A stretch of DNA of 63,299 nucleotides, counting the filler, from Rozella allomycis CSF55 (lineage: Eukaryota): NCBI GenBank assembly GCA_000442015.1. It is 7 parts of 7 records of this genome, joined end to end, with 100 filler letters (N's around TTAATTAATTAA, not from the genome) between each part and the next. Parts side by side here need not be neighbours in the genome. Positions count along the whole stretch, not along the records: positions 1 to 27,358 come from KE561039.1; positions 27,459 to 39,037 come from KE561042.1; positions 39,138 to 43,978 come from KE561046.1; positions 44,079 to 48,091 come from KE561050.1; 3 more parts are not named here. One strand, given 5' to 3'. Shown in pieces: positions 96 to 49,909 of the stretch. The stretch's first letter is position 1. Every line of letters begins with the position of its first letter. A model generated the notes under the pieces. The model searched no databases, was not told the DNA's origin, and saw nothing but the letters and a program-made list of their open reading frames with translations. Made by a program: the position numbers and the translations under genes.

Positions 96-826
96 ATGGG
101 CCATCTCTTTACGAAATCAGCGCGCATATCGCAACACGACCGCTCCTTGCTCGACATCAAAATCCAGCGCGACAAGCTCACACAGTATCACAAAAAGGTA
201 ACAATCGCATACCGCCAACCCAGCTATCCATGATAATTGCGTGCGACCGGGCGGTAGCATTAGAGTGTCTCCGTGTGAACGACCGTGAGAGGGCGCGTCT
301 TGCGCTCCGCAAGAAAAAGTACGACGAGACGCTTCTGCAGCGGACTGGTGAGCAGCTGGCGACGCTCGAGGAGCTGGTAAGGTGATATTAAGGGGGTTAA
401 TGGTTGCGACGATAGAGTATAAGGCTGTTGAGAAGAGTGTGGTGGAGGGGCTTGAGAAGGGGAGGATGGTGCTTGAGGCGCTGAATAGGGAGATGTCGGT
501 GGAGAGGGTGGAGATGATTATGGATGATACGAGGGATGCGATTGAGTACCAGAAGGTATGAGGTTGGGTGTGTGTGGTTGTGTAGGAGGTTTCGGATATG
601 CTGGGGAATGTGTTGAGTAGTGAGGATGAGGAGGAGATAATGAAAGAGTTGGAGGATATTCAGATGACTGCTGTAAGTTTGTGGGTTGATGTTTGAGTAG
701 ATGAAGGGATTGGTGCCTGCGCCTGTAAGTGTTGAAAAGAATGAGATTGATAATGTGAGAGTAGATGAAGAGGCAGAACNTGAGGATGTTGAACAATCAA
801 CTGACGAAGTTCTCCTACCAGCCTAG
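96..826 (+). CDS. VPS20: ESCRT-III subunit Vps20/CHMP6 (5 exons)
   Basis: Spliced translation MGHLFTK..HDRSLLDIKIQRDKLTQYHKK|LSMII..ARLALRKKKY..QLATLEEL|VATIEYKAVEKSVVEGLEKG..MDDTRDAIEYQK|EVSDMLG matches the Snf7-family Vps20 pattern, including N-terminal MG. Introns 198-223, 377-402 (ends ATG), 556-585, 673-700; N at 780. Confidence 0.9.
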
Positions 827-967
827 TCAGCAGTAACGTAATAACGTAATAATCCAATTTTTAAATAAGTCAATGTTAAATATTTAAAAAATAAATTTTG
901 TTAATTTTTAATATTTAAAAAATAAATTTTGTTAATAAACCTTTATATTTTCTTTAAAAACGAACAT

Positions 968-3900
968 TTATAAACCTTTCGGCTTCTCCTTGGTAGTATC
1001 ATATTTCCTAATAAGACTAGCCTGCCCATCCTCAGTTTGCGAAAACGCATAACCGCCTACTCAAAACCCCTAAAATATTTTACGATTCCTCTTAATCCTC
1101 TGCAGCAGCCTAACTTTGTGAACTGCCTTCATGAACCTATCCATGCGTGGTCTGTAATCAGGAATATTGTATTTCTGGAACTCTTGAACAATGTGGTAGC
1201 AGGTGGGAATGTACGTTCTTTTGAAGCTAGTCGAGAGTGGAATGTGAATTGTTACTATCGCCAAGCATAGTCTCTGAGAATGCATGTGGCTGGGATGATG
1301 ATGATTGAGAACCAAAAGATGGATGATGAATATAGCGTGGGTGGCATTGAAAAGTATCTATTGAGTGGAAGGATATTAGTTACTCGTAGCCGACGTTGAA
1401 AACAGGGCCGAGGTAGGAGTAGATGGAGATGAATAGAAAGTAAAAGAGGAATGAGCCGATAAAGGCAGCGACTGCGTAGATTGTGTAATAGTCGATGAGC
1501 AGGGCCGCCTTGTACAGGACAGTGATGATTTCAGATGTGTAGATGATCAATCCAAGGAACCAGAGGCCAGCTGAAGATCCGGTTGACAGGATGATTTCAT
1601 TGAAACCCAAGTAGAACAGAAACAGGAACAGAGTTAGCGAGTGGATGATTGCATTGAAGGTCCATGTCCAGAATACTTTAACATTGAAAAAACTTTTTTG
1701 TATTCCAGATTGATACAATTGGGGGTAATTGTCTAATTGTCTAGCACCCAAATACTGATCAAATATTCCAATGACCAGGGGAGGTAGAACAGTGAAGAAC
1801 ATATTGTACAATGTTAATGTCCAACTCTCATACAATGTTTGACCACTGAAAGTGTTGTAGAATGCAAACCAAAACTGTGTGAGATACAATGTAATGTTCT
1901 TGTAGAATGAATACAAAATCAATCTGCTTAATCTTCTGTAACACCAACCCCCATGAACTAGTAATAATTTCTGTAAATATTTGAATTGTGAAATTGAGAA
2001 ATCTGAAGATCTAGAGGCTTGTAATCCTTCTAAGCCACTGATACCCACTCCCACGTGGGCTGCTTGGATCATTGAAACATCGTTAGCCCCATCTCCAATA
2101 GCCAACAAGATTGAATTTGTATTTCTCTTGACTAATTTAACAACGAGTGCTTTCTGGATGGGTGACACTCTACAACAAATAACAGATTTACACAATTTAG
2201 CCAAATTAAAGAACATTTCTTCTAAATCTTTTTCCAATGCGAATGAAAGAGATTTCCCATCAATAATCAACGCAAAAGATTCAATTTCAGAATTTGATTG
2301 TTTTGCTATTTTCATTGCTTCATTAATTGAATTCAATTTATTCATTAAACAATCTCTAGTTTCAAAATGTGTATTTTCATTTATTATTATCAAATTTATT
2401 TCTTCATTCAACAGTTTACATGAATATCCAATATTAATTGCTGTTTCTTGTCTATCCCCTGTCAACACCCATATCTTTATCCCTGCCATTGACAACACAT
2501 TAATTGTTTCAGGAACTTGGTCTTGCAGTTTATCTTCAATCGCTGTTGCACCCAACAATCTCAAATCTTTCTCTATCATTTCACACGCTTTGTCTATTTC
2601 TTCTGTTCTATTCTTTATCGTCAAACTAGCAGCATCATAAATCTTTTTCCATTCCAAATATTCTTCTTCTTCAATTTCTCTCATTGCCAAGCAAAGTGTT
2701 CTCAACCCCAAACTAGCACAATCCTCCAACTGTGACAGAACCTTTTCTTTTAAATTCCCAGTGGGACTATTCCCAGTGGGAGTATTAGCAGTAGTAACCT
2801 TTGAATCTCCCTCTCTCAAACCCTCCCGGTCCCCTTCCTTTAATCTCTCAAATATAACAGTGTCAGCTCCTTTACAATACAACTTTATTTTATCCCCTTC
2901 CTTTACAATAACACTCATCCTCTTTCTATCACTATTAAACTCCAACACATTCAATATCTCAAACTCCATCTCTTCATTCATCACTCGCACAGTCACACTC
3001 TTCGGTCTCCTAACTACAAACTTATACCCAATCAAACTCGCTCCATTCACCAACGCACCCTCATCAGGCGACGCCGCTTGATACACAATCTCCCCATCAT
3101 CTCCCCTCTCAGGAATCACCGTATGACACACAGACAACAACTTCATATACTCTTTAATCGTATCCCGACTCGCATGCATATTCACATTCTTCATTATATC
3201 CTCAAACAAATAATAACCAATCTCATAACCATCCTCATCTCTCCTATTCACATTCGCTCGGATCATCCCCTCCTCCAACTCATCAATATAGTTAATCCCT
3301 CCAATCATACACCGCTTCAACACCATCTTATTACACGTCAACGTTCCAGTCTACTAAACTCAAATAATATCATTCACCTTGTCACTAAATATATACTCAA
3401 CTTGCCCCAACTCTTCAACCAAAGACGACGTTCTAGCAACAGCACACTGGTCAGCCTCCTCATAATACATGTCCAAATCACTGCTAATCAACATCGCTTG
3501 CACAACCCTCACAACCTCCATCGTCACTATCAAACTAATCGGTATCAAATTATTATACAAAACTACAAACGTCAGAAACGTATACACAAACGAACTAGAA
3601 CTCTCCCCACTCAAATACCAATGACGCTTCTCATCCCCAACTACAAAACCTACATGCGCCATCGAACTCACTATCGACAATATAATCAATATCAAAAACA
3701 GAAAAAATATCTGCGAATTCGTCATCTTCTCAATATTCGTCTGCTTAATTGGCGCAGCATGCGCATTCCTCATCAGCTTCGAATCATGGCCTGTAAAAAC
3801 TACAACTCCATACACCCAGCGCGTGTTCCGCAACGCAGCTCCCCTCAACAACATCTGGCTAGGCTCAAGCGGTATCTCCTTTTCACCAACCCTCAACGTC

Positions 3901-4690
3901 CCCTCAAACGTATACAAACTGCTATTAGGCATCTCGCTCTTCAACACACACCCTTTCATCAACCACAAATCATATCTACCTCTCAGCAAACTCACACTCT
4001 CAGGGGTCAGCATCTCAGCAGTCTCGCTCTTGCCCTGTCTAATCTTCAAATTCGTCTCCCTAAACTCAACTCATCAAAGCAACTCCTACCCGTCCAAATT
4101 AGCAGTCTCAATATAACACAGCGCATCAGGCTCACTGCTGCTCAGCAACACCAAGTCAGCAGGAAAATACTCGCCATTCTCAACCCGCACTATATCCCCC
4201 ACACGCACCTGCACCCACATCCGCTCCTCAAACCGTCCACCAACAAGCACCTTCACAACCCGCTCATTCACCTCCATATCACTCTTCCTCCGTTTCTATC
4301 ACACAATCAAAACTACATTACCCAGTCCTCAACCGCTTCCTTCAACCCACTCGCACTCAACACAAACACAAGCGGCAGCAAAGTACTATACCTACTCCCT
4401 CACCCAAAATCCACATACTTGTTTGTCGGCGACACACCGTCAATTTGCTGGATGACACTCGTCACCAGGAAAAACACATTCGCATACTTTGAAAACTGCT
4501 CGCTCAGGAATTTAGGCAGAAAGGTTAGCAACGTGTACTTTGTCGTAGAGATCGCGTTGCTCAGGTAGCCATCGTTCGGCGAACTGATCATGATTTGCCG
4601 AAAGTTCATGCTCTCTGCTTCGCTTGCAGAGTTGCTGCCCAGGCGCTCGTGCGGCAGAGATCTTTTGAACAGCTTGTAGAGTTTGTTCAT
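968..4690 (-). CDS. DRS2: P4-ATPase aminophospholipid flippase, Drs2/ATP8A type (8 tiny introns)
   Basis: Motifs [56 protein letters not shown], and C-terminal RGYAFSQ..YDTT. All introns are GT-AG. Confidence 0.95.
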
Positions 4691-6430
4691 AGGTGGCTTG
4701 GGCGGGTCGTGCGGTGATACAATTGAGGAGAGGAAATATGAGTAGTGAGTAGTGGGTGGGTTGAAAGATTTTAAAGAATTGTAAAGAATTGTAAAGAATT
4801 GTATATTTATTGGAATCGAGTTTGAGGTGTTGGAATAGGAGAAATTTCCTTTTACGTAAGAGTGACAGTTAGATATCTGATAACTGACTGATTTTACTTC
4901 CTGTTTCGAATGAAAAAATTGAAATAGTTACTTTATATCTTAAAAATAGATATTGTCAGTGATACGAAAGTTTTATTGGATTAGGAACGATCTATATCTT
5001 CCTTTCATGATTTCATCAATTATCGATTATGCAGAATGCTAAAACAAATTCATCGTTAAGAAATGATTTTCTTTTATTCTAATTCTAAATACTAAATAGA
5101 TTAGTCTAATAGTCTATGCTACCCTTCAAACAATTTTGATGTAAATTTTAAAGACACATTTATAAAAGGTCCATATTTAATAGTCGCATCCTACATGGTA
5201 ACATACTATATATATTAGGTGCGGACTCCCACTTCCTGTTTAACCGCTACCACATCTTCTTCCACAAACCTCCATCTATAAGTCGATTAATAATCATTTA
5301 GTTCAATTGTTTTGTACATAACGCTTAGAGATTTGCAATCTTTCTCTTCTTTAGAATCCAGGATGAATTAGATATTTGGGACTTATTCCGGAAGACAATG
5401 TTCTACTTGGTAAAGACTATTGTTAGAGCGTTTCAACAATACTTCAAAGTGAGAATGAACACAGTAATTCAATATGTTTCAGACGGTAACAACTGAATTG
5501 AACAGAAGTATCCGTTCTCGCTGCCAAAGAAGGTCGATTGGGATCCCATCAGGATGCATTATCGGCTTTGTCTTTGGCTTTCCAACTTGACAGTCTTTGG
5601 CCTCTAGAACGTCCCCTATTGTTGCATTCGTGTAAGTCATTATAAATCCATAATGGTTGCTCATGTGATTAGCAAGCGAAGCATGTCACTCGGCTTTTCG
5701 TGTTTTTATTCGTTTAGATAGATAAATGACATGACGTTTACAGATTCAAAGGGGATTCATTGATTCATGAGTAGGTGGCCTAGGCCCTAGACTGTAAAAA
5801 AGTGAGATAAAAACGAAACTAAAACCTGATGTTACTAAACTCATTAAAAAGTTGTCACTCAAAATCACTGGTAAGATATCCAAAAGGAAAAGACTGTGCC
5901 ATTCATATCTTTAGTCTTCCGATTCTTCCCTAAGCGTTATCCCATTTAATGTACAAGACACAGAGTTTTTCAACATCATTATGCTGCACTATATTATTTC
6001 CTGCTAACTAAGGGAGATCTTAATTTTAACAGAAGAGTTATAGTTTGTCTAAAATTTCTCATGTTTGTCTTGTCGGTTATCTTGTCAAAGAAATCAATCT
6101 TTCCATAACAGATCTTCTTTAGCACGCTGACTATTGTCGAATAGAAGTACCAAGCAGAGTTTTGTTGCCGGGTATTATCAAAAAGAGATGAACCCATGCG
6201 CCTAGACACACGGAATCAATTCCTCTTTACAATGAGATTATAGACCAGAGGTAAACATATAAATATATAAAGAAACGAAACACTTAATGAAGTTTGCCAG
6301 CTCGGGGCAAAAAGGGATATTTTTCAGAAGCCCGGGGTCGGGGTAGCCGGCGTGTCGATTTAACCAACCCATAGCGTGAACTCATAAAATCAAATAACGC
6401 CGTAATGCTTGAATACACTTTAACATTGCT

Positions 6431-7799
6431 TTATTTCATCAATTTTAAAATAAATGTAATAATTCCAATAACAATAGTTCCAATGCCAAAGATCACAATG
6501 AATATGGAGCCGCCGTACAGGATTTTGTTATTTCCAATATGTCCATCGGCAAATGTTTTGGCCTCTAGCATATTATCACTACTTCCAGTGTGACAATGTA
6601 CCAATAGCCTCTCATTTTCAAGTTCATCATTACAAGGCTGTGTTAACTTTTCTCTTACAGCGAATATGTAGCAAAGACCTGGAAGCACATAAGCAATACA
6701 CGTTGAAGCAACAATCCCCACCAGTTCAAATGTAGATCCGAGATCATGCACAATACAGCTGACACCAACGACTGTCGCCCAAAGAACCAACGACACCACA
6801 ACCCTAGACCTTGTCCTTACAACCTCCATGATCGCCGTCCTGGTCGGATAAAACTGCGTTGGAAACACCACCATCATATCCACTGCCAAAAGCATTCTCG
6901 CAGCGATAATAAAAGAATCACCAGCAGGAAAATTGTTCAAGACGTTTCCCGCCACATCCTTCCCAAAAGCAATATAGCCAGTCAATGCGAAAGCCATTGA
7001 AACCGCCAGGGAGATTGCTGTAGAAACTAAAGTAGCGAGGAACCAGCGTTTCCGTGATGGATGTGACAATGTTGCGAAATTAATAAAGGCGGTGTGGTTT
7101 GAAACAAATGCGAATGCCATGACGCCTATATTCGTAGAGGAGAGTGATTACCGATGGCGGGGACTAGATTTGGTTCGATAAATGAGAATGAACGGTCATG
7201 GCCGCGTGCATAATGTGGACCGAAAAATGAGCGAGCGAATACTAGACAGACCATTGCTGGTAGAGCTACCAATGCAACTGTGGCGATTCGTGCTAATGAG
7301 CCTAATGATTGTTTCCATAGGAGGGGAAAGATAAAGATTAAGGATATTGTGATTATTGATATCCTTCTATCCACTAGAAATGAATCTGCAGAAAGCATTG
7401 ATTCTTTGAGGATCATAGAGATGCAATCGCCGATGATAACTATGAATAAATAATGAATAGTATACTGTTGTAAGATATCATTGAACCGATACCATTTAGT
7501 ATGATAGCTGCTTGCACGATGTATATTCCATATCTCGGCAGTGAATTTTGTACCATTGAGGAATAGTCATTGACTAGTAATATTTTGCCTGTTGTTATCA
7601 TGAGATTGAGTGAGAGAACTGATAATAAGGCAACAAGGATCATTAGGAGGATGCCCATTCCTAGACCTGATTCTGTCAGGGCAAAGGGCAAACCTATTAG
7701 CCCGGCACCTAGGGTTGAATTAGTGATGGCTATAGCTACAGCTATAATGCCTCTTTTTGGGATATGAGCGAAAATATCTATAGGGATGTCTTGACGCAT
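6431..7799 (-). CDS. Amino acid transporter, Aa_trans (AVT2/SLC38-like)
   Basis: NSTLGAGLIGLPFA and GVMAFAFVSNH motifs, many hydrophobic segments, two 26-nt GT-AG introns. The start could instead be the ATG at 7859. Confidence 0.85.
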
Positions 7800-7888
7800 T
7801 CTTGAAAATTGACAATTTGAAGTATAAGGGATATAGATGATAAAAAGTAATGATAACATATTTTATAAGTGTGTGAGAATAATTTATT

Positions 7889-9725
7889 TTATTTTTTTAA
7901 AAGTTTTTCAATTTTGGCATCTACAAGAGCTAGATCAGATTGCAATGACGCTACTTTTGAATGACGATCCTTTTTGTCTGTTGGATGTAAAACAGCATCG
8001 TATATTTGATTTACGAGATTAATTTTAGCTTTAGAGTGTCCAATGTAATCAGAAAAGTGGGAGGAGAGGAGAGAGCCAGTAGTTTTAGCGAAAGCAGCGA
8101 GGTAGTCTAATTCATCGTTGACTTTTGATATTCTTGCTTTTCTTTGTTGATCGAATTCAGAGAGATCGTTTGTTTTCTTTGAATATTCAAATGATTGATC
8201 CAACGCTTTTAAATCTGCAACAATTTTGGAATGTGAATGAGAAAGTTCATAAACACAAAGTTCAATTCTTTCTAATTCTATTTGATCTTTTGTCTGTGAA
8301 AGAAATTTGAAATTTTATTACTTTTTTGATTGACCAATCAACGTTCACTCCAATGATGGCCAAAACAAAAAGACAAAAAAATGAAAAAGAAACGTAAAGA
8401 ATTTTCTTTAAATAAGAAACAAAAGAATAATCATAAGAAATCTAATAAAGAATGAAGAATTGTTTGATTACTTTGATATTCTTGATATTCTTTTCAATTA
8501 AATTGAATTTGTTTAAAAAGAGAACATTTCTTCCAGAATAATCAAAATAAGAAAATTTGTGATTCAAATTTGATTGAAGTTCAAATGGATAATTTGATTC
8601 GATATTTCTAAAATTGATTGATTGATTAAAGTTTACGCTGAGCCTTCAGGGAAAACAATTTCCATTGAAAATTCTTCAACTGGAATGTTTTCAAAAAGAA
8701 ACGCCAACGGAAAATTAAATTCGTGTTTATTCGTTACATTTTTTATTAAATATTCATTCAGGGGTAATTGGTAGCCGCTAGTCCAAGAATAGTTCCAACT
8801 CCCATAAAGTGGATACCTTGGAACCAAATTTAAAATTGTAGATTTCGTTTCTTTTTTTATTGTAATTGTTGAAACATATCCAACTTCATCTTTAAATGTT
8901 ATTTCACTCGCACTCTTTGGCAATTTCAATTGAAGAAACGAAATTTCACTTTCACCCCTGGCCTGACTCATTGGATTATTTTTATATCCATCCTTCAATT
9001 CTGGCCCTTTATGTTGCACATGAAATGTATCATGAACTGTAATCTCATTCGTCCAATGCGACAACTCAACCACGCGGTGCAATCTAGTCACCGAAAACAA
9101 TTGGCCAGAATATTTATATTGTATTCTCATCGGCTTCAAATCCCACGCTTCTACATCTTTATACATACCATACACAATCATATTCTTCTCTTTTATTGTT
9201 TCTCCCAATTTGTCGTAAAACTTTACATCAGTCCTCTCAGGTAATCTATAACCCAATCATCCATCCCTTACTTTATAAATGTCTTTTGCTTCTCAATCAC
9301 ATCTACAGACGGCACATACCCATAAAAGTCATATCTAACATACTGCGGCTCATGTTGCTGTATCTTTTTCGGAAAAGGCACCAAACTACCAACAATAGAA
9401 AACACCACTTCCGTCTTCAAACTATCAGCCTCCACAGCATAGCATTTCCACTCCCTGTAACAATTCAACTACTTCCTTACTCTCTATCCGGACATTCGCC
9501 AACAATATACGGCAATTCTTTCCCCTGCTCATTTTTTGCTTCAAAAATAGCCACTTTGCTATCAACAGGTATCGGCACATGGAACCTTGACACATTCCTT
9601 AGTTTCACCGTCCACGCCTCTTGCACAATAGAGGTTTGGCATGATATAACTCTCTTTATAGACGCAATATCTGCGCACTCGCTGAAAATTGCAAAGACAA
9701 AAATTAGAAATATATCAGTAACCAT
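7889..9725 (-). CDS. OST1: Oligosaccharyltransferase subunit ribophorin I (Ost1), 6 exons
   Basis: Signal peptide; VELSHW, DEVGYVST, PRYPLYGSWNYSW, FPEG and FSYFD..GR motifs; one TM segment then a cytosolic coiled tail; five GT-AG introns. Confidence 0.9.
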
Positions 9726-10007
9726 CTACAACTTGACCAGGGTTGGATGGAATGGGCCTTCAAAGCAAGAATATTGTAATATACACAAATGTAATATGTA
9801 GGTATGAATTGGATTTAATCGGTTTTAATCTGTGTACTTGATCGGGTTTCAGAGACATATGTCATTGATTATTCACCAATATCAAATGCATACAAATTAC
9901 AGTTTACATATATTTCATTGATCATTCAATATTTCAATTCTCAATTTAGGCAAAATTACTATATATATTCTCACTTCTCTTTACTGACCCAAATACCAGG
10001 GTGCTGT

Positions 10008-11716
10008 ATGAGTAAACATATAGTGATAGTCGGCGGTGTAGCCGGTGGCGCCACCTGCGCAGCGCGCCTTCGCCGATTAAGTGAACAAACCAGAATAACC
10101 ATATTCGAAAAGGGCCCATTCGTTTCATTCGCCAACTGCGGCCTTCCATACTTTATTGGCAACATCATTGAAAAGGAAGACAGCTTGCTGCTAGCGAAAC
10201 CGCAGCTCTTTAAAGAGAGATTCAACATCGATGTTCATGTGAACCACCAGGTCGTGGGCATTGATAGAGCAAAGAAGGTTGTTTTGGTGAAGANAGGTTG
10301 TGGGCATTGATAGAGCAAAGAAGGTTGTTTTGGTGAAGAGCCAGGGGAGTGGCGATGTGCAGCATGTGAGCTATGATTACTTGGTGCTTTCTCCGGGTGC
10401 GGCGCCGGTAAAGCCTGTGGTGGCGGGGATGGATCTACCTGGGGATCTTTGTACTGCGTAATGTGCCGGATAGCAAGCAGATCAAGGAATGGATTCAGAG
10501 TAGAAGTGTGAAATCTGCGGTTATTATTGGAGGTGGTTTCGTGGGCCTTGAAATGGCTGAAAATCTGGTTCATTTGGGAATCAAGGTGTCTATATTGCAG
10601 AACACGAATCAAGTCATGAATCCGTTTGACTATGAAATCGTGTCGCCGTTGCACGATGTTATTAAAGAGCATGGAGTAGAATTAAGGCTTGGAACGACTT
10701 TTACTGGATTTGAACAGAATGGATCCAAAGTTAAAGTTCTTACTAAAGATAGTCAATCGCTTGAAGCTGATATTGTTATTCTTGCTATTGGTGTTAGACC
10801 GGATGTTGAAATCGCAAAGCAGGCTGGACTGGAAATTGGCTCGTTTGGCGGGATCAGAACGAATGAAAAGATGCAGACATCGGATCCTTCAATTTACGCT
10901 GTTGGTGATTGCATAGAAACTAAAGATTTTCAGACAAGAGAATGGACAAACATTCCACTTGCAGGGCCCGCTAATCGTCAAGGTAGAATAGCAGCTGACG
11001 CTATCATGGGGCGTGACGTGGCATACAAGGGCGTTCTCGGCACTGCTATATGCAAAGTCTTTGAAGGAATCGTTGCATGCACAGGTTTAAGTGAGAAGAT
11101 GCTGATAAAGAAGCAAATTCGATATCAAAAGTATTACTTGTTTCCCAACCATCATGTCGGTTATTATCCTGGTGCTGAACAAATACACATGAAGATACTA
11201 TTTGACCCTGAGAATGGAAAGATTTTGGGTGCTCAAGCGTTCGGCACTGAAGGAGTTGATAAACGAATTGATATTTTAGCGGTCGCTATTCAATCAGGAA
11301 GAACAGTTCACGACTTGGAAGATATGGAATTATGCTATGCCCCGCAATTTGGTGCCGCTAAAGACCCCATTAATTTAGCAGGAATGATTGGCTCAAACTA
11401 CATGAAAAATGAACATCCTCTTTGTCATTGGAATGATAAAGAAGTAGTTGACTTAATGAATGGTAACAACAATGGAATCTTAATCGACGTGCGAAGCAAC
11501 GCAGAGTACGAAGATGGACACGCCCCCAATGCAGTCAATATCCCTCTTCCTGAATTGAGACTCAAGCTGGAAGGATTGTCTAAAGATAAACCCTTATATG
11601 TTTACTGTAGAGTTGGACAAAGAGGGTACTACGCTACTAGACTTTTATTACTCAATGGCTTCATTGTGAAAAATGTCAGTGGAGGCTTCTTGGCTTATGA
11701 ATCATCAAATAAATGA
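10008..11716 (+). CDS. Bacterial-type CoA-disulfide/persulfide reductase (FAD-dependent pyridine nucleotide-disulfide oxidoreductase) fused to a C-terminal rhodanese domain; intronless
   Basis: GGVAGGATCAARLRR, SFANCGLPY (redox Cys), GGGFVGLEMAENL, AVGD, LAGPANRQGR, YAPQF, and rhodanese DVR..EY..GH..YCRVGQRG. The apparent break is the duplicated overlap at N10294. Confidence 0.9.
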
Positions 11717-11782
11717 TAGAATGTTCATCTTGATTTATTTTTTGAGTGAATTATTTCATTTATTTTCTGATATTGTTGCCAT

Positions 11783-12703
11783 TTATTTCTCCCTTTCTGT
11801 TGATGAGATTAATACACTGCACATCGGACAATAAGCCTTAAAGGACTCCATTCTCAAGCTTTCAATACAATGGTAGCAGAATACGTGACCACAAGGACTG
11901 CACTTTTGCCTTATGACCATTTGCTTGAGACATATTCCACATTGGTTAGGAGAAGGAATAATGGCCTCTTTGTGTGAGAAAATCTTTTTAAATTTCGATT
12001 CTATTTGTAGTGAAGACAACAAAGGCATAATTGAAGTCAAGAATTCTGACAAAACGTTCCATATCATCTGTCTGTCTGTGAATTCCAAAACTATCATTCT
12101 TTCCAAGGAGTCATCATTAACTATCGAACGGAAACCAAACAGTCTTTCAAACCATGNGGGCATAATTGAAGTCAAGAATTCTGACAAAACATTCCATATC
12201 ATCTGTCTATCTGTGAATTCCAAAACTATCATCCTTTCCAAGGAGTCATCATTAACTATCGAATGGAAACCAAACAGTCTTTCAAACCATGTTCGGTATT
12301 TCTCATCTTTAAGAAACAACAAGAAATTCAACAGCTCAAATGCACTATTAATCTCTTCATTATAATCTGCTACGAACAAAGGCATTCTTGTCTTGCATTT
12401 GGACCAACATAATGGCAAAAGTACATTCCACATGAAATAGTTTCGCTTGTCAACTGATGAAAGTCCTGTTTTCTTTGACTCTGATTTTGAATAGACCAAG
12501 TTTTGTAATTCATCGCCGTAACTTGCATTTCTTTTGGAAATGTTGTAGTAAAAGGATATACACCGAATGACAAATGTTATAATTGATTTGTATTTGTATT
12601 TAAAATTGCCATTAAATTGGGAAAGCGCATTTGATATTCTTGATTGCAAGATATTTTCCAATTCCAAGTCTAATGATTGCGCATCCAGCAGTACAGATTT
12701 CAT
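11783..12703 (-). CDS. PEX2: Peroxin Pex2 (Pex2/Pex12 N domain plus C3HC4 RING)
   Basis: LDAQSLDLEL, ASYGDELQNL, EFTDRQMIWNVLSEFL, and RING CGIC..CGHVFCYHC..CPMC. The internal ~44-aa repeat is an overlap artefact at N12157. Confidence 0.85.
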   Translation of the reverse strand: MKSVLLDAQSLDLELENILQSRISNALSQFNGNFKYKYKSIITFVIRCISFYYNISKRNASYGDELQNLVYSKSESKKTGLSSVDKRNYFMWNVLLPLCWSKCKTRMPLFVADYNEEINSAFELLNFLLFLKDEKYRTWFERLFGFHSIVNDDSLERMIVLEFTDRQMIWNVLSEFLTSIMPXWFERLFGFRSIVNDDSLERMIVLEFTDRQMIWNVLSEFLTSIMPLLSSLQIESKFKKIFSHKEAIIPSPNQCGICLKQMVIRQKCSPCGHVFCYHCIESLRMESFKAYCPMCSVLISSTEREK

Positions 12704-12812
12704 TTAGAAATTTCTCAGATCGATATCTCTTTTCTAAATCCAAGAATTATTTTTTTAACTTAATAGTTTAATTGATTTTATTCACGTGTATTTATATTTA
12801 TTTACTTGTTTA

Positions 12813-13686
12813 TTAATTTAAGAATATAGTAAACAATATTGGACCTAGTAAGTACGAACCCAGACATAGCAATGTTTTCCATCCCTTCGTTTCTAAAACT
12901 AACCCAAAGTCTGGGAACCCAAAATAATTACACAGTGAATGACACAAAATTGCACATAATATGGAGTCTTGTAAAAACAATTAATTTCACATACTTGTTT
13001 TAATGTAAAAATAGGATACAAAGGAACCAAACAATGATGTAAACATAAATTGAAGAGCGCTTTGATAAATTATACTAGAAACAGGATATTTAAGATGATA
13101 AAGCAACCATGCATGATGGAGGTGAGCTATTCGATATGATTTTCAATAATGATTACCAACGCCAAAGAAAAGGGGAGATATGAAGACCAATTGGAACATA
13201 TTTTGAATTTCTTTCCTCGCTTGCCCTAATAAGCAACCTCTAAATACAAACTCTTCAACCATTGGCCCCTAAATTTTGAAAAAAAGATGTGTTTTACTAT
13301 AACAATATTCCTAATAAACTCTATTTTCGTTAAATCCGAATGAAAGGGGACTTTAAGGACTATATTAGTCATGATGGGCCCACAAAAAAGCAGTATTATT
13401 AACCAAAGAGGCTGCATTACGTCCCAAGCATTGAAATCCCATCCAATGTCGTAAATGTTGTAAGATCCCATTTTNTAAGATCCCATTTTTTAAAGAGATA
13501 ATTTTTTACCGTTATTTTTTGAGTTATGTAATATGAAATCGGGATGTACAAAATAGAAGCCTGCAATCTTGCGACGATTGTATCGTAATCATTTCGATCA
13601 ATAGGATTTTTGACCCTTCTTAATTTAGGATACAAGTGTATTATGCAAACGAACCCAAAAGAGAGAGTCAATCCCAGCAAAAGCAT
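12813..13686 (-). CDS. RCE1: CAAX prenyl protease 2 (Rce1)
   Basis: RNIVI|GPMVEEFVFRG, FFGV|AHLHH, HSLCNYFGFP motifs. Four introns; the first (13484-13509) ends in ATG. Confidence 0.88.
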
Positions 13687-13721
13687 GCTTCGGTATTCTT
13701 TCTAAATTTGAAATTTGGCGA

Positions 13722-15109: not shown

Positions 15110-15259
15110 TGCGTCAAAAATGGATTATGGATCTAATTCAAAGTTTACCATGTCAGTCTCGTGAATAAACTTTAATATTTTAAGATTTTGACGATCATAT
15201 ATGAGCCTTGATGTCTGATACGAAAACGTATTCTAGTTCTGAAATTTCCCATTTAAAGT

Positions 15260-16278
15260 ATGCAGGACATTGGTAATGGAGCAATTATAGAACATCCCGT
15301 TGACAATTATAAATTCTATGTCAAATTATGGAGAGTATAGTATATTAGGAAAGAAAATAGGCAGAGAAGCCGATTGCTGGAGTTCTTTTCATCCATGGGT
15401 TGGGTGAACACATTGAAAGATTCAATGATATGTTTAATGAGTTTCGATCAAATGATATTTCAGTATTAGGATTTGATCTAAGAGGGCATGGACGAAGTGA
15501 ATCAAAAGATGGCTCAAAAATGTATGGCCATTTGGCACAACCCTCAAAAAGCATTCGTGACTCTATACAGAGTGATGTGTCATTTTTTATGGACCTCTTG
15601 TCTAAACATGTCGTAGATGTCCCATACTTTCTCATGGGACATTCACTTGGAGGAGAAATTGCTTCATATTATGTTCTTGACAGTCCTGGCTTCAATCATC
15701 ATGTGATTCTTTCAGGTAATATTTAAAGACTGAGTTGATAGCTCCAAATATTGAACCAGGAGTACCGGTTCCAATCTTTAAAAAGGTCTTTGGAAGGTTA
15801 AGTGCACCGTTACTTCCAAATTTTTGTATAACTAATGAAATCGGTATTTTTGATTTAATTTATACAATGATCCAAGTTTAACATCAAGAGATGAAGCCTC
15901 AGTGGAAAGATATAGACAAGATCCATTGATTCATCCTTATGTTACTTTAATGAGTGGTAATTTTTTATAGTCAATGTTAGTTGCAAAGTTTGGTTTGGAT
16001 GGCGGGCAAGAATTGATAACATTAGCAAAGTCATTCAAAGCGAAATCTCTTCTAGTAACTCATGGGACAGATGACAAGATAACTTCTCCAAGTGCTTCTA
16101 AAATGTTTTATGATGGGTGCAGTGAAATAGAAGACAAAGAGTACAAATCATTCCCTGGTTATTATCATGAATGTAAATTGAATCAATTATATGAATAGTG
16201 CACTTTGATTTGGGGAAGGAAGAAGTGATCGCATTTTACATTAACTGGATAAAGAAACACGCGTCTATCAATGGCTAA
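15260..16278 (+). CDS. Alpha/beta hydrolase, monoglyceride lipase / lysophospholipase (Yju3/MGLL-like)
   Basis: HGLGEH, FDLRGHGRS, GHSLGG, DPSLTSRD..YRQDPL, HGTDDKIT, YHE|LH. Five introns; 15844-15869 ends in ATG. Confidence 0.9.
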
Positions 16279-16332
16279 TAAATTATTTTTGAATGGCATT
16301 GTTCATCTAATTTTAGAATTGATTTTTCCGAA

Positions 16333-17804: not shown

Positions 17805-17913
17805 AAACAAAGTCTAAAAATAAATCATTGTTCACGCATTTAATGTTCTAAAAATAGATGTCACTCTGTTATAAATTAGATCAAACGTACCCCTTTGTTT
17901 CATCTTATACCGC

Positions 17914-18213
17914 ATGAAATTTTTTGAATCATCAGTTCTTTTAACCATCTTTGCATCGTTTGCATATTCATATCCAAACATTCTTAATTCGATTACAAAC
18001 GTGGACGAGTATAGAGCGCAAATAAAAACACTCCAAACAGAAATCAAAGATATCTACAAGAAGAACATGGACGCAAGAACACAGTATTTCAAGCTTGTAG
18101 ATGATTTAAAGAAAAATCTCAAACAATGCAAAACTCAACATCTACAATTAAAAACAAGACTGGATTATGCCGCTCAAATGCAAAATCAGCCATCACATGC
18201 TGAATCAATTTAA
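17914..18213 (+). CDS. Small secreted coiled-coil protein (99 aa), unknown function
   Basis: Intact single-exon ORF; MK plus hydrophobic core plus AYS signal-peptide pattern; heptad-like helix. Confidence 0.7.
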   Translation: MKFFESSVLLTIFASFAYSYPNILNSITNVDEYRAQIKTLQTEIKDIYKKNMDARTQYFKLVDDLKKNLKQCKTQHLQLKTRLDYAAQMQNQPSHAESI

Positions 18214-18275
18214 AGTTTAAATAAACAAAATTATGCTAGAGATACTCTTAACTATTATTTATTAAATATGCAAAT

Positions 18276-19270: not shown

Positions 19271-19348
19271 TTTACGCCACTCAAAAATTTGAAAACTAGT
19301 CAAATAGTACTCTTTAAAAGAAGATGGTATTTATTAAAATTATTTATA

Positions 19349-28042: not shown

Positions 28043-28062
28043 CCAAGTTATAAAATCAAGTT

Positions 28063-32906: not shown

Positions 32907-32957
32907 TAAATAGAGATTAGACACAATGAATTTAAGACATACTTTTTTCTTTATTTT

Positions 32958-34739
32958 TTACATCCAAACAAAATTATGCCCTGGAAACAGTATTCTATAC
33001 ATGTGAATTATAATGTCATCTTTTGGGCGCAAGGTTAGTTTGCCAAACTCCAAATTGCAGTCAAGGACACAAATATCATTTCGGGATCTACATCTAGACA
33101 ACGCCACTAGTAGCTGACCCGGTTCAAACAAATTAACTAGATATAAATTTACTTTTGGTAGATTTAGACCCATTGATTTATGGATTGTCATGAATGTGCA
33201 AACCATAATTGGAAATTGAATTCTATAATGACCTGAATGAGAGACGGTTTTCATTAGTCTTGTAACGTTTACTTTTCCTAAACCAGGAACAATGATTTGA
33301 ATTAGATCTTTGTTTAAGGTCACCACATAACCAAATATCCCATTGCGAATTGTATGATCGACATTTACTGTAAACATAACTTGTATCCCGATAGTCAATT
33401 TAAGGCAGTTTGGGAGTTGAGTAGCGGTTTGAGGCCAGTAAATATTGGACTGAGATTGTATACCATTCGGTAAGTAGTCCATTGCAAAGTAAATGTCTGA
33501 TACGATGTGCCCCCTTCGATTTTGAATATACTTGTCGTTTTCGGCCTCTACTGTTTTTTTCAAAGACGTAAGAGTAGGAGCATTTTTNATTGTATACCAT
33601 TTGGTAAGTAGTCCATTGCAAAGTAAATATCTGATACGATGTGTCCCATTCGATTTTGAATATACTTGTCATTTTCGGCCTCTACTGTTTTTTTCAAAGA
33701 CGTAAGAGTAGGAGCATTTTTAAACTTTTCGTGTTGGCACAATGTCTGTAGGGCGACCACTAGTCTATGGTCAATAGAAGCTCTAAACAGGTTGTCTTGT
33801 AACAAAGAGTAAAAATGGGCGTCATTCAAACCACGAAAGCATTTTGTTAAAAGATACGATTTAGATTGCAGAATCAATTGCTTATTGTACATTAGACATT
33901 TACCGTTGCCACTTGGGGGTCCCAGCTGACGAAAATCTCCCACCATTACTAATGGATAGCCACCAAAATATGAGGTCTTTATATCGCTTAAATCATTTAG
34001 TTTGGTATCTATACAATAAAACAATTCATAAGATAATGTTAACACCTCATCAATAATGATTACACCCTTCGTGTCGCTTCCAATACAAGGCAAGTCGTCT
34101 AAGCAGCGTAGGTTTGATATGTGTATGTCTAAGTCTCCGTATTTTCCTTGTGACATTACCCTGAATGCTTGNTTCATGTCGTTTCCAATACAAGGCAAGT
34201 CGTCTACGCTGCGTAAGTTTAAAATATGTATGTCTAAGTCTCCGTATTTTCCTTGTGACATTACCCTGAATGCTTGGTGGATTGTGTAATTACCAGCGTG
34301 ACTACCGAATGACGCATTTATAGCGGCTACACCAATTGTACTACAAACCAGATATCTCCTATTAATAGCATTAAGGGATTTGCACAGATGCCTTACCAGG
34401 TTTTGTTTTTCCCGTGCCAGGCCCTCCAAGAATAAGAAAAGTTTTTTGGTGGCTATGCAATATTTCATCAATAATATAATTGTACTCATACGTGTCCATG
34501 CTTTTGTGTTTAGAAGTAAATATGGTCCTNATAATATTAAGGGATTTGCACAGATGCCTTACCAGGTATGTTTTCCAGTGCCAGGCCCCCAAGAATAAGG
34601 AAGGTTTTTTGGTGGCCATGCAATATTTCATGTAGCATTAAGGGAATTGCACAGATGCCAGGCCCCCAAGAATAAGGAAGGTTTTTTGGTGGCTATGCAG
34701 TATTTCATTAGTAATATATTTGTGCTCATACGAGTCCAT
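32958..34739 (-). CDS. Stand-alone Pif1-family SF1B helicase (reconstructed across N-junction duplications)
   Basis: GGPGTGKT, STIGVAA, TIHQAF, IIIDEV, FGG..VMVGDFRQLGP, LTKCFR, L.IG.QVMFTVN..NG, QFP..TIHKSMG, GQLLVALSR. Confidence 0.88.
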
Positions 34740-34817
34740 ACTTTTGTGTTTAGAAGACAATATGGTCCTAATGGTAACTAAAAACAAAACGTGGTCTTTA
34801 TTGACTTATTAGTATAG

Positions 34818-35287
34818 TTAAACGTCGTCCAACCAAGCCGGAGCATCTCGAATTGTAATTTGTGGAATGTCTGCCTTTCTTAAGTAGATATGTTTCGGCG
34901 TAACAGAAAAGTACTTTTCTCCGCTAACTCTTAATTCTCCAGCAGTAACAATTGTGTCACCCTCGTCACATTTATCATAAAAATGACTGGTTAAATCACT
35001 TATAACCACACTTATTCGCAATTTTTGGTCTGGGGTAGGAACAACTAATTCTAATGATCTAATCTCCCAATTTCCCGAGTACTCGCGTTTTTTATTAGGC
35101 GAATTATTAAGTATACTTGGNTAATAACTTTTTTTTGTTGTAGCGTCCCTATTATGCGAATATTCGCTCCAAAGATAAGTAATTTACCTCTTATTTCTGG
35201 AGAGCAATATACATCAGCATCATTTACCACTGCGTCTTTCTGTTTAAAAGCGTCTTTAATGTTAACAACTATATAACAGTTAGGCAA
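34818..35287 (-). CDS. Putative OB-fold ssDNA-binding protein directly upstream of the helicase
   Basis: RISVVI..FYDKCDEGDTIVTAGELRV..FSVTPKHIYL resembles the SSB/RPA OB-fold strand pattern; the upstream exon has a similar IFGANIRIIGTLQ. Pattern-level only. Confidence 0.45.
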
Positions 35288-36639
35288 GTTTTACCTGACG
35301 TACTTGTTTGTCCCTCCATAGTGTCCTTGTCCCTTTCTTTAGTTTTTTTCTCTTTGAGGATGTCCATGGGTCACACAAAATCAAACTGCCGTAAATATTA
35401 AGTNCTTTTTTCTCTTTGTGGTTATCCATAGGTTACACAGAATCAAACCGCGGTATATATAAGGTGAAACACGGGGTTGTTTCACCTAATTACTACCAGT
35501 TTGTGCTTAAAATAGCACTGCCTCTATAAATAGTTTAGCACTAATTTGATTGGTAGTCCCGTCTTTTGTGCGTACTGCAGGCAGGACTCTACGCGTGAGT
35601 CTCAGGCAGGCAAATGATCACATAACCTGAACACGTTGATTTGTCGGCATTAGACACCGGTTTTTACTAATCTTTAAAAATGTTTATAATAAGATATATA
35701 TTATTTTATATGATCAAGATGTTAGAAATTGCCGATTGCAAGTTTAAATAGGCGATTGCTCAGATCACAAACCCATAACACTACTTTCAAGAATATGGAT
35801 TGCTATAAGATATGTTATGGTGTCCTTTAATATAAGCGGTGTGTATGGTCTCAGGGCAAAGCTCTGTTTTTGTTAAAATGGATATGGTATGTCGATCCGT
35901 CCGGGACGGATCATCATATCAATATGGGTATCCATCCGGGCCAGATCATTACTTTAGCATGGGTATCCGTCCAGGCCGGATGTCATTTTACCATCACTCA
36001 ATGTTTGACTTTGACATTTGATCATCTGATTAGCGATGGCAGGTGGTGTCAAATAGGCATATATACCGTACTATCTTTGATGATTAATATAAATGAATAA
36101 CGAGGAACGAATTATATACGATCCATTGACGCGCTTAGAGTAATATTACCACTATATATTAATTAAGGATGCCGATAGATATGCATTCAACCATCCCGAC
36201 AGGCACGAGCTAATGCCGGCATTAGGTCCTCAAATCGGTCACTTTGCACAAAGATATAACATCGTACCTGTTGTCAACAAGCGCGACGAGAGCCGTCAGA
36301 CAGGGATAACAAGTTGGTTAGGTATATCCAAAGATCTTTAGATAATCATATTATGAACACCCCCAACAATTATGTGGCTGTAAATATTTTGAGTAATCTT
36401 AATAAGACAATTATTGCCACCTCCATAGACCAGTCAGTCTTGGACTTTATGGAGGTGTCACAGGGGGCTGTTGTTGAGAACTTNGAAATTATTTATTATA
36501 CTATTAACAACATGTCATATCAATATCTAGCAGTAAAAATGTCGCTAGTAGGTTTAAATGTTAAGCAGATACCCACGCGTACTACACGCANTTTTGCGGA
36601 CCACGATGACAAGCCTAGTAATGTTGACCATTTACCAAA

Positions 36640-36990
36640 ATATAGTGCTAGAGACAAGCCTTGTGGTGATCCCTGGGACCGGCCATTGTTTTTTCATTCC
36701 GTTGCATATCACGTTTTTGCTGATATGTACCAGCATCTGGAAGTACGTCAACAGGCTTTAAACGCTCTGATCTTCATCCGGAGTGACCCAACTTGCGTAA
36801 AAATGCTGTAATTATTAGATAGGCCTCGTATTTTAGTCATGACCTAGAACACAGATTGTACAACTCACAAATGGCAGCCGAGTCCGTCTCACGTCCGTTT
36901 TGGGCCGACGGATGTTAAGTGGTACATTTAATAGCTTACGCCTACAATTGTCCCGTATGCATTATTGAAGACTTAACCTCGGTCATCTAT
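36640..36990 (+). pseudogene. OTU-family cysteine protease (deubiquitinase) remnant
   Basis: VIPGTGHCFF, then a frameshift in a T-run, then HSVAYHVF..HLEVRQQAL; later WADG..LIAYAYNCPVCII. This fits the OTU Cys-box and variable-loop pattern. Confidence 0.7.
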
Positions 36991-37824
36991 GTACCGTATG
37001 CAACGTGTTTGAGAACAACTTTTACGAGATCAGGTAAACATTTAACACATTTATAAAAGACATTGCAATTGTACTTAACNTAACGAGCGCCACTGTTTGC
37101 CAGCGAGTCTTACCTACACATTTTAATATTACGGCAAATATGTCATAAATAAATTATTATTAATCAAATAGTATTAGTTTTGGCGTGGCGTATCAAAAAT
37201 ATATTTTCAACCTCCTAAATTACATTGCACACATCATAGGATATTCTTTACACCCAACTTCGTATAACCACATACAAGGCGGCGACGATATTAATTGAAT
37301 ATGGCAAACTATCTTTAAAATATATTTCTAACGGTTATCTGAATATAGTATAATCTAAGCCACAAATCATGGAAACGATTAATTCGTATTGTAAGCTGAA
37401 AACAACTAACCGAATGCTAAAGGTCCCAGTCTTTTGTTATTNCATGTCCTTAGTAGGTTAAAATGTTAAGCAGATACCCACGCGTACTACACGCAGTACT
37501 TCCCGCTTGACTCTCACGTAGGCGAATGATCACATAAACGAGCGCCACTGTTTGGCAGCGAGTCTAACCTACACATTTTTAATATTAGGGCAAATATGTC
37601 ATAAATAAATATTTATTAATCAAATAGTATTAGTTTTGGCGTGGCGTATCAAAAATATATTTTCAACCTCCTAAATTACATTGCACACATCATAGGATAG
37701 GCATCACACCCAGCTTCGTATAACCACATACAAGGCGGCGACGATATTAATTAAATATGGCAAACTATCTTTAAAATATATTTCTAACAGTTATCTGAAT
37801 ATAGTATAATCTAAGCCTCAAATC

Positions 37825-38604
37825 ATGGAAACGTTTAATTCGTATTATAAGCTGAAAACAACTAACCGAATGCTAAAGGTCCCAGTCTTTTGGAATTTTA
37901 TTCAAATTATTGAAGCTGCTGTATTATACGATGAAGAGAGAAATTTATTGAGAAGCTGCTCTCTACAAGCCTTTAAAGACACTATGTCTACCACCTTTTA
38001 TAAAAACAAGCTAAACCACAAAACAAAGTCCGATCTTTGAGTCTTTTTTGACCTCTTTTTAGTACCTAGTCGTAAAATGTCTTTACGACAGGTGCAAAAT
38101 ATGAATTGGGGCGTCGTGGTTTTAGAGCGAGCAGCAAATAGGGAATTATCATTGCCTTTATGGACACGATATGAATTTAAACCATCTGACTTTGACATCC
38201 TGCCCCCACATGTAATTAAACAGCATCGGAAACGTGGACAATTGTATTACATATGTGATGGACCTGGTGCGATGGTAAATCATAATTGTAGTCTTTTAAA
38301 CAATTGTACATGGGTAGATGAAAAAACGAAACTTAAGACAAAACATTTTATTCAAAACATTGTTTCATTAAGTCCATTACAGGAGCTGCGGGTCACATAC
38401 GGAGGCGATTATTTCATGCCTGGGGATTGCAAGTGCCCGAAACACAAAGTGAGATCAACAAGAACATCATCTAATACACCTATGGTCTGGCTAAATAAAT
38501 ATCAACTCTTAAATGTTATAAATTTTATTTTATATCCCCGCTTGACAACACGGAAATTTCAAATGAAAAAGACCCAGAAAAATTGCTTAAGAGGATTGAC
38601 GTAA
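37825..38604 (+). pseudogene. SET-domain methyltransferase, Set9/SUV4-20-like
   Basis: DGPGAMVNHNC, ELRVTYGGDYF..CKC post-SET; an in-frame TGA at 38038 separates the two ORFs. Confidence 0.75.
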
Positions 38605-39137
38605 AAGTGTAGATTGGTTTAAATAGGATATACATCATTACGTCATGGAGAACAACGGGGACCTCAAGAAAAAAATGAAACGCCTCCTGGACACAATTGC
38701 TTCAAAGAGGACAGTGAAAGTATTCATTTGTACACAGATGNTGACTTAGTTAAGGACTTTCGGGACCTTATGGAGAAGCACAGAAGCCCTCTATATTTCA
38801 AATACGAAAATATCCTGAGGAACATAGCAATCCAAAGGATCACGTTGGAGGGACTTACTCAGAAAGTATTCATGGAGTTAAGTGGATGCACCAAAAACAA
38901 GACCAAGTAATATATAGTTTCGTACAAGATTAGGACGTTATACCAAACGTCAACTAGACTGACCAAAGCTGTTGAGAGATTTGGACAACAAATTATGTTG
39001 ACAAATTTTGACTCAACAGTTTGTTTGTCTAAAAAAANNNNNNNNNNNNNNNNNNNNNNNNNNNNNNNNNNNNNNNNNNNNTTAATTAATTAANNNNNNN
39101 NNNNNNNNNNNNNNNNNNNNNNNNNNNNNNNNNNNNN

Positions 39138-46865: not shown

Positions 46866-46962
46866 NTGGTGGTATTCAGAATCGGCGACATTGCAATGTG
46901 CAGCGAGTGGCGTCAACAGTAAACAAATTCACAAGGAAAATTCGTATTGTAAAAAGATTGCT

Positions 46963-47456
46963 TTAATTCTCTTTATTGACTGATTTGGATAAATTGGATT
47001 CATTCAATACTTGCTCAAAAATTTCATCTTCTGTTTTACTTGCACAATCTATAGTGCGTTCCACTTGTCCAACCTTTGATACCTATTTACCGTCTGATGC
47101 CAGTGTCAATTTAAGTTTTGCTTTCTGCGCCGGATCTTCTGTTACAACGAAATGCGTATCTTTATTAGCATAGTAAATTCTCGGCATGATTTGCCGGTAA
47201 AAATTTCTATGACACTTTCGGTCTGATCAAATTACCTTGCACCTTTCTCGTCTTCGGGATACTCACTGTTGTCCATCATCTCCATATTACCCAGCGAAGC
47301 ATTCGGCTGCACATTCGGTCCCTTGATTGGTGGTCTTAATGTCAAATGCATTGTTTTCACATTAAGCTTCATCAGCGCACCAACACCCTCGACTAAATTT
47401 TTCAGTTTGGGATGCAAATTGGCTGATATCTTTTTAATGCTTTTGAGAGAATTCAT
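46963..47456 (-). CDS. Mitochondrial ribosomal protein Mrp49/mL61-like (L51/S25/CI-B8 fold)
   Basis: GVGAL..V..MHL and GAR|NFYRQIMPRIYYAN resemble GARxFxxxxLPxLxYxNP; two GT-AG introns. Confidence 0.65.
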
Positions 47457-47487
47457 TGAAAAGTTTCTGCAATTTCCTAAACTGGAA

Positions 47488-48091
47488 ATGAGTGTTGAGG
47501 GATACAAGCAGGTTCTGTCTAAAATTATTTCAAAGTCTGTGAATAAAAGTGTAAGGTGGAGATGGGGTGTTGAAAGGTTAGACTGGTTGCTGTTAGCAAG
47601 ACTAAAAGTTTTGAAGATATTTTGAGAATATATGAGCAAGGACAGCGGGACTTTGGAGAGAATTATGTAATTTGATTAATTGTTGGTGATATGATCCAAG
47701 AGTTGGTGGAGAAGAGTGCTGAATTGCCGAGGGATATTCGATGGCATTATATTGGAGCGATCCAGCAGAATAAAATCAAGCAATTAGTAAAAATTATGAT
47801 TTAAATTTATACATTTATCCATTGAAAACTTGTTCTGTATTCAAGCACTTGATTCGATGAAACATGCGAATTATTTGAATGATCGATTGGCGGAGCTTAA
47901 AAGGTCGTTGAGATGCTTTATACAAGTGTGCACGAGTGGTGAATCTAGTATGATTTTATGTTAATAATTAGAGGTAAAAATGGAGTAAGGCCTGAAGATT
48001 TGATGGCGTTGGTGGATCATATTGTGAATAAATGCAAAAACATTGAATTGAGGGGATTGATGACGATTGGAGCGGCTGATGGTGATCCAAG
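47488..48091 (+). CDS. PLPBP: PLP homeostasis protein YggS/PROSC (3' end truncated)
   Basis: RLVAVSKTK, FGENY|IQEL, WHYIG.IQ.NK, QVCTSGE.|K.G, GLMTIG. Four introns, two with non-AG ends. Confidence 0.93.
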
Positions 48092-49889: not shown

Positions 49890-49909
49890 AAATGAATTGT
49901 TTTAAACAT

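Follow-up and report, generated by a model that had tools for sequence, protein, structure and literature searches.

Candidate non-AG 3' splice sites in the very short introns of Rozella allomycis

Few signals in eukaryotic gene expression are as constant as the terminal AG of introns, and here we analyze five candidate introns that would end without it in a window of Rozella allomycis (Cryptomycota), a stretch of 63,299 nucleotides (nt) in which contigs of the GenBank reference assembly are strung together with N-TTAATTAATTAA-N linkers. An open reading frame of the window for ribonucleotide reductase (701 residues) shares 100% identity with a protein of strain CSF55. Genomes with tiny introns confined to a narrow length range include those of Paramecium, Stentor, the chlorarachniophyte nucleomorphs, and the microsporidia, and to our knowledge these lineages keep AG. 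Introns of the U12 type, in turn, carry the donor consensus RTATCCTT. TG acceptors have been verified in 36 human genes, where they reportedly occur only as alternatives to an AG within 28 nt and are preceded by a pyrimidine, and where mutation of an AG to TG leads to the activation of other AGs (Szafranski et al. 2007, PMC2374985). In Micromonas, the introner elements IE-B and IE-D are reported as constitutive GT-TG introns (Verhelst et al. 2013, PMC3879977). As for Rozella itself, the literature mentions introns of about 30 nt (PMC6349667), an intron density of 2.5 per kilobase (PMC8476143), and curated gene models derived from unpublished RNA sequencing in a supplementary table (PMC13393502), an article whose acknowledgements credit T. 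Y. James with R. allomycis RNA-seq data. In agreement with the initial annotation of this stretch, which knew of no account of non-AG sites in this lineage, our literature search found no description of them for Rozella, the supplementary curated gene models lying outside its reach; the word "intron" is absent from PMC5701793, as are "GT-TG" and "Rozella" from PMC7072748.

The five stretches proposed by the initial annotation as introns with non-AG ends are present in the window with the coordinates, ends, and lengths it gave (26, 26, 26, 27, and 28 nt):

377..402, plus strand: intron 2 of a VPS20/CHMP6-like gene, 26 nt, GTAAGG..TTAATG (GT..TG)
13484..13509, minus strand: candidate intron 1 of an RCE1-like gene (about 12819-13686), 26 nt, GTAAAA..AAAATG, from a frame change only
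15844..15869, plus strand: intron 3 of a monoacylglycerol-lipase-like alpha/beta hydrolase gene (coding sequence 15260-16278), 26 nt, GTATTT..ACAATG (GT..TG)
47667..47693, plus strand: intron 2 of a PLPBP gene, 27 nt, GTAATT..GATATG (GT..TG)
47787..47814, plus strand: intron 3 of the same PLPBP gene, 28 nt, GTAAAA..TATACAT (GT..AT)

All five start with GTA, and their 3' ends read TG four times and AT once; that four of them end in ATG at the modal intron length was thus also borne out. Their lengths of 26-28 nt fall within the 26-31 nt range of 44 GT-AG introns from the same window, at its mode (26 nt), such that they have the GT donor and the length of local U2-type introns while none of them has the AG. 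Downstream of each site the exon is intact and conserved, which requires some productive splice. For four of the five, comparison with homologous proteins shows that the predicted splice needed for the conserved protein removes exactly these stretches. The claim that the expected protein is restored only with a non-AG end accordingly stands by homology for VPS20, the lipase, and PLPBP introns 2 and 3, and lacks such backing for RCE1, for which no homologue was found. Judging from the sequence, we consider that these are probably real non-AG acceptors, that is, ordinary R. allomycis spliceosomal introns with ATG or AT 3' splice sites, the putative ATG ends comprising three well-supported cases and a doubtful one, and the putative AT end a single case.

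Similarly to the human TG-AG tandems, the candidates combine a GT donor and a TG end with an AG within 28 nt downstream in VPS20 (13 nt past the TG), the lipase (7 nt), and PLPBP intron 2 (7 nt), which fails for RCE1 (72 nt). Unlike in those tandems, the TG form would be the sole productive one, the nearest AG being out of frame in VPS20, the lipase, and PLPBP intron 2; moreover, the putative R. allomycis TG acceptor always follows an A, would concern several per cent of the introns, and terminates introns that are all about 26 nt long. With Micromonas IE-B and IE-D they share the condition of GT..TG introns in a microbial eukaryote, whereas those elements are described as repeated and mobile with lengths of 100-6,494 nt, and the R. 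allomycis cases are single introns of 26-27 nt in conserved genes. With regard to the similarity among copies expected of introner elements, the introns of the window resemble one another barely above shuffled controls: the top pair, lipase intron 3 and PLPBP intron 3, scored 13, as did a canonical pair, against 12 for the best of 3,384 shuffled pairs. These two introns share TGATTTAA(A)TTTATACA. Like the tiny-intron genomes named above, R. allomycis has very short, sharply bounded introns with GTA donors. The donors of the five candidates (GTAAGG, GTAAAA, GTATTT, GTAATT, and GTAAAA) differ from the U12 consensus. AT-AC introns, which are of the U12 type or, rarely, of the U2 type, offer a parallel as a non-GT-AG class with co-varying end bases, and two of the five R. 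allomycis sites can be read as such while three cannot.

The VPS20/CHMP6-like coding sequence (96-826) begins with the ATG at 96 and, after removal of introns 198-223, 377-402, 556-585, and 673-700, encodes a 206-residue protein of the Snf7 family. Residues 14-50 of the 51 encoded by exon 2 (224-376) match positions 33-69 of the Snf7 profile, which places residue 51 at position 70 by a one-residue extrapolation, and residues 3-51 of exon 3 (403-555) match positions 73-121, which places the start of this exon at position 71 by a two-residue extrapolation. The predicted junction is hence located between profile positions 70 and 71, with no gap. The intron contains a TGA in frame. The GT-AG alternative, 377-417 (41 nt), loses the five residues VATIE at Snf7 positions 71-75, and an AT-AC alternative of 26 nt (385-410) changes only VAT to VRW.

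For the lipase, splice variants were scored on a profile built from 41 homologues. The GT..TG splice reached 234.6 bits, with an ungapped alignment through LLPNFCITNEIDPSLTSRDEASVERYRQDPLI, which is 23 and 31 bits above the two GT-AG alternatives, namely the 47-nt intron ending at 15890 (211.8 bits, minus 7 residues) and the 80-nt intron of the GenBank annotation (15797-15876; 203.7 bits, minus 18 residues). Neighboring in-frame non-AG ends scored 228.9 and 225.1 bits. Additionally, exon 4 aligns from its first residue to positions 146-169 of both Hydrolase_4 and 6qe2_A, while a PDB search with exon 3 produced no match. A metagenome scan with exon 2 returned 23 loci of 29-40% identity and no close relative of Rozella, and so no orthologous introns. 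Both GenBank models of this gene, EPZ33779.1 from this assembly and RKP19951.1 from a single-cell assembly, carry the 80-nt intron and a second doubtful intron. EPZ33779.1 also lacks exon 1 and uses a GTG..AAG intron of 26 nt (15703-15728) that scores 10.5 bits below 15716-15741. EPZ33437.1 leaves the last ribonucleotide reductase intron (61639-61666, 28 nt) unspliced and has a false C-terminus. The two lipase models are ab initio-like, and the public models contain such errors; therefore, the annotation is no evidence either way.

The PLPBP/YBL036C-like gene, whose coding sequence starts at 47488 and is cut by the contig end at 48091, holds the two remaining sites. Its exon 2 ends at residue 70 (FGENY) of the yeast YBL036C chain 1ct5_A, and exon 3 spans residues 71-101 of that chain from its first to its last residue, the respective starts reading VQEL and IQEL. 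Intron 2 contains an in-frame TGA, and its sole near GT-AG alternative, a 36-nt intron ending at 47702, deletes IQE. Residues 3-43 of exon 4 match 1ct5_A 104-147, which places residue 1 of this exon at position 102. The exact end of intron 3 could lie at 25, 28, or 31 nt (TA, AT, or TA, respectively), and it is uncertain by one residue because the junction lies in a loop. Of the GT-AG and GC-AG introns shorter than 100 nt, none joins the frames at this site; the first AG, which is out of frame, has its end at position 59. The AT-AC options remove the conserved N of NLF.

The RCE1-like candidate is of a different kind. Neither a word-indexed library nor a library of 1.84 billion representatives contained a homologue of this exon, and a Pfam search with it gave nothing. 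It is quite possible that there is no non-AG intron here at all, either because the A6 run that forms the candidate 3' end was miscounted by one base and the 26 nt are coding, or because a 98-nt GT-AG intron is used, which is in frame and measures 83 nt without a local duplication. Consistent with this, the 26 nt contain no stop in the upstream reading frame, the same contig carries an erroneous extra base next to a G run, and the region has no detectable homologues; against it stand the GTA start, the modal length of 26 nt, and the AATG end as in the other cases. A single-N join (13475) with a 14-nt duplication begins 9 nt past the claimed acceptor, and the A6 run belongs to an assembly with a 1-nt indel error elsewhere. 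Human and yeast RCE1 would presumably favor retention of the IGW segment. RCE1 is a weak case, which we drop from the count of supported non-AG introns.

The behavior of the canonical introns provides the frame in which these sites can be read. The finder used for the reference set required a GTA donor and allowed lengths of 20-45 nt, and its output was corrected against homologues and completed by hand, resulting in 44 GT-AG introns. About 17 of these were checked by comparison with homologues or motifs, the others standing on frame and coding potential. Two introns of ambiguous length, 24795 (22 versus 28 nt) and 15957 (24 nt if the donor is GTA, 27 nt if it is GTG), and an unverified one at a contig end (44252-44219, 34 nt) were left out of the 44. 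Lengths in this set are 26 nt (15 introns), 27 (6), 28 (7), 29 (8), 30 (7), and 31 (1). Donors read GTAA in 27, GTAT in 11, GTAC in 3, and GTAG in 2 (43 of 44 tallied, with GTA required by the finder), and acceptors read TAG in 26, CAG in 7, AAG in 7, and GAG in 4. In all 44 (one with corrected coordinates), the chosen AG is the first with its end at or beyond position 26. Another 20 AGs, with ends at positions 18-25, are passed over, 15 of them being out of frame with the chosen one. This pattern of choice, together with the 20 unused earlier AGs, therefore supports a sharp lower length limit of 26 nt. In the introns of the window, we found no branch-like YTRA motif at a fixed distance from the 3' end and no pyrimidine enrichment close to it, T making up 0.40 of the last ten positions against 0.39 overall. 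Three introns illustrate the limit:

47948..47973, plus strand: PLPBP intron 4, 26 nt, GT-AG, with a TAG at 24 skipped for a GAG at 26
61968..61993, minus strand: intron 1 of an SH3BGR-like gene, 26 nt, GT-AG, with a TAG at 24 skipped for a GAG at 26, from the frames
59341..59367, plus strand: ribonucleotide reductase intron 2, 27 nt, GT-AG (GAGAAG), with a GAG at 24 unused

In PLPBP intron 4, use of the TAG leads to a stop after four codons and use of the GAG to TSGESSKNGVRPEDL, and the skipping of TAG for GAG that had been proposed for this intron and for SH3BGR intron 1 is confirmed by the reading frames. The borders of ribonucleotide reductase intron 2 leave no extra residue in an alignment with seven homologues. 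Of the more general proposal that the 3' end is set largely by its distance from the donor, the 26-nt minimum followed by the first AG holds, but distance as the sole determinant does not follow from the data. Lipase intron 4 (15954-15980), when read with its GTG donor at 27 nt, scores 3.7 bits above the 24-nt version with a GTA donor, a reading that would remove the sole intron shorter than 26 nt.

All in-frame alternatives to the candidates were enumerated, that is, every GT-AG, GC-AG, and AT-AC intron joining the same frames. The earliest AG at or after position 26 ends at 39 in VPS20, 98 in RCE1, 33 in the lipase, 34 in PLPBP intron 2, and 59 in PLPBP intron 3, and in four of the five it is out of frame. 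The downstream AGs named in the initial annotation (417, 15890, 47702, and the RCE1 CAG) are indeed present and in frame, and an improbable alternative would be that such canonical AGs further on are used (377-417, 15844-15890 or 15797-15876, 47667-47702, and the 98-nt RCE1 intron), with proteins that lack 3-18 residues and a homology that is coincidental. These introns are GT-AG and in frame, and GenBank uses the 80-nt one for the lipase; nevertheless, they would be 36-98 nt long, compared with 26-31 nt in all 44 GT-AG introns. Those of VPS20, the lipase, and PLPBP intron 2 exceed every one of the 44 in length and none of them uses the first AG from position 26 on, which is out of frame, so that the rule followed by all canonical introns would be broken as well. 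They would also forfeit profile-matched residues (23 to 31 bits in the lipase, VQE/IQE in PLPBP, and Snf7 positions 71-75), and PLPBP intron 3 offers no such option.

A further alternative concerns VPS20 and the lipase only, which might carry 26-nt AT-AC introns (385-410 and 15840-15865) rather than GT..TG ones. Both keep the frame and the protein length while altering one or two residues, and two such coincidences among five sites have a chance of roughly 2%, by a rough estimate. Even so, we regard this as very improbable: the 5' ends, ATATTA and ATCGGT, are unlike both the local GTA[AT] donor and the U12 consensus, whereas under the GT readings the introns begin with GTAAGG and GTATTT; the lipase loses slightly in score; and in PLPBP introns 2 and 3 there is no AT-AC equivalent that keeps the conserved residues.

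The recurrence of ATG bears on the quality of the bases themselves. Given the intron base composition and junctions fixed by homology, four or more ATG ends among five introns would arise by chance with a probability of 1.3e-6. With TAG at 26 and AAG at 7 of the 44 canonical acceptors, decayed or miscalled AG sites should be mostly TTG; if AG sites were hit by A>T changes, four ATG in four would be expected with (7/44)^4, or about 6e-4, and of the 71 A>N differences that separate the window from the contigs of run X5, 22 are A>T. Random decay or miscalling does not explain the recurrence of ATG. A broader version of the same idea, in which the functional copy has AAG or CAG and the reference has miscalls or a defective haplotype, seems unlikely to us. 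It draws on the assembly errors, on the differences of about 1-2.7% from the run contigs, on the two alleles seen in run X2, and on the 94% identity of the single-cell lipase over exon 2, and a single substitution would turn each non-AG end into a normal acceptor, ACAT versus ACAG being the most suspect. It is opposed by the expectation that random changes would give mostly TTG, GG, or AA and not ATG four times, by the lack of stop codons or frameshifts in the exons of the four genes, and by the 80-nt intron in both GenBank lipase models, which come from two assemblies and hint weakly that neither has an AG at 26 nt.

Several observations weigh against real non-AG acceptors. In-frame GT-AG alternatives exist in VPS20 (41 nt), the lipase (47 and 80 nt), PLPBP intron 2 (36 nt), and RCE1 (98 nt), and AT-AC readings of the same 26-nt length exist in VPS20 and in the lipase, where the latter (15840-15865, I to N) scores 231.9 bits, only 2.7 below GT..TG. 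A GTG and a CTG ending at position 27 are unused in two of the GT-AG introns first found, one of them being the later excluded 44252-44219. In the human tandems, TG is reported never to be the sole or main acceptor, and about 0.01% of candidate TGs are used (PMC2374985). The ACAT of PLPBP intron 3 is one base from a normal ACAG, and because of this its AT end is the least secure case. No RNA run was found to contain the region, and RNA run X12 matched positions 1-20000 of the window in 18-24-nt scraps only. The assembly is a draft, and the reference carries one extra base at about 10437-10440 (window 10430-10445), adjoining a G run. The difference level between the window and the run contigs reaches 1-2.7% in places. 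The read comparison covered positions 1-20000, which hold the VPS20, RCE1, and lipase sites, and both PLPBP sites lie outside this range. Among the 40 of 455 differences and 12 of 23 indels listed, none falls at the VPS20, RCE1, or lipase acceptors, which is not independent confirmation.

The comparison behind these last points, of positions 1-20000 with contigs of three DNA runs, gave 455 differences and 23 indels in total, seven of the differences listed lying between 54 and 543. Run X2 shows both alleles, and the lipase of the single-cell assembly shares 94% identity in exon 2. The strain appears to be heterozygous or a mixture, with local levels of 1-2.7%. The extra base near 10437 splits a CoA-disulfide-reductase/rhodanese-like gene into two overlapping open reading frames; it is absent from the contigs of runs X1 and X2, and its deletion restores AGMDLPGIFVLRNVPDS. 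Single-N joins at 10294, 12157, 13475, 13791, 18833, 39585, 43302, 43462, 46866, 50534, and 53003 have direct repeats on both flanks. These duplicated flanks are unmerged contig overlaps, and genes that cross such joins contain artificial insertions because of them. Contigs of the public runs jump over the duplications, from 12129 to 12265 and from 13753 to 13792, and leave out 29 nt at 18805.

Returning to real non-AG acceptors as the preferred explanation, a mechanism can be outlined. In a very short intron the 5' splice site, branch, and 3' end would be linked by a nearly taut path with hardly any slack, and only nucleotides about 26-31 nt from the donor would reach the catalytic center for the second step, exon ligation. 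Within this reachable span AG would be preferred, and where it offers no in-frame AG, A-T-G might be accepted, which keeps the terminal G and has the A one place further upstream. In solved yeast spliceosomes, the terminal G of the intron pairs with its first G. At three of the four TG sites an AG follows 7-13 nt further on, as in the human tandems, and splicing there may yield both a productive TG product and an AG product with a shifted frame. We put forward tentatively, as a proposal read from the sequence for which the case falls slightly short of balance, that the spliceosome of R. allomycis picks the 3' site mainly by reach, in a zone whose near edge lies exactly 26 nt from the donor, and that it would use constitutive A-T-G, occasionally G-less, acceptors in about 5-10% of introns.

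Some further features of the window deserve record. The 10-mer ATGATCCAAG spans the ATG acceptor and the next AG at 15867-15876 in the lipase and at 47691-47700 in PLPBP, in different reading frames, and by a rough estimate its chance of occurring in two unrelated genes is about 1e-3. Regions 27459-39037 and 48192-57053 hold repeated transposon-like open reading frames and internal repeats (e.g., 31500-31900), not conserved genes. A GTA..AATG candidate at 31549-31574 was rejected, as it sits in repeats outside any gene. The stretch 59251-59282, once taken for an intron, is coding, and the finder introns 59341-59364, 1716-1676, and 10458-10500 were rejected as false or mis-bounded. The finder missed AT-rich genes. 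The first gene finder and a census of open reading frame pairs were too noisy for an unbiased count of non-AG introns, and a Fisher test of donor versus acceptor is invalid, since the finder required GTA. An Rfam scan found no RNA family in the window, and so no small nuclear RNA within it.

Both public annotations allow canonical sites only and mis-model at least the lipase, and because of such mis-modeled annotations, comparative studies that use Rozella as the sister of microsporidia inherit wrong proteins. If the acceptors are real and as frequent as proposed, a lineage would combine a productive ATG acceptor in several per cent of its introns with a hard lower limit of 26 nt, and among the fungi and the lineages beside them it would be the first in which 3' splice sites without AG are routine. 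This would bear on how the 3' splice site docks for the second step, and on the extent to which that docking depends on geometry as opposed to sequence, and R. allomycis would then offer a natural system for how the second catalytic step reads the 3' end of an intron.

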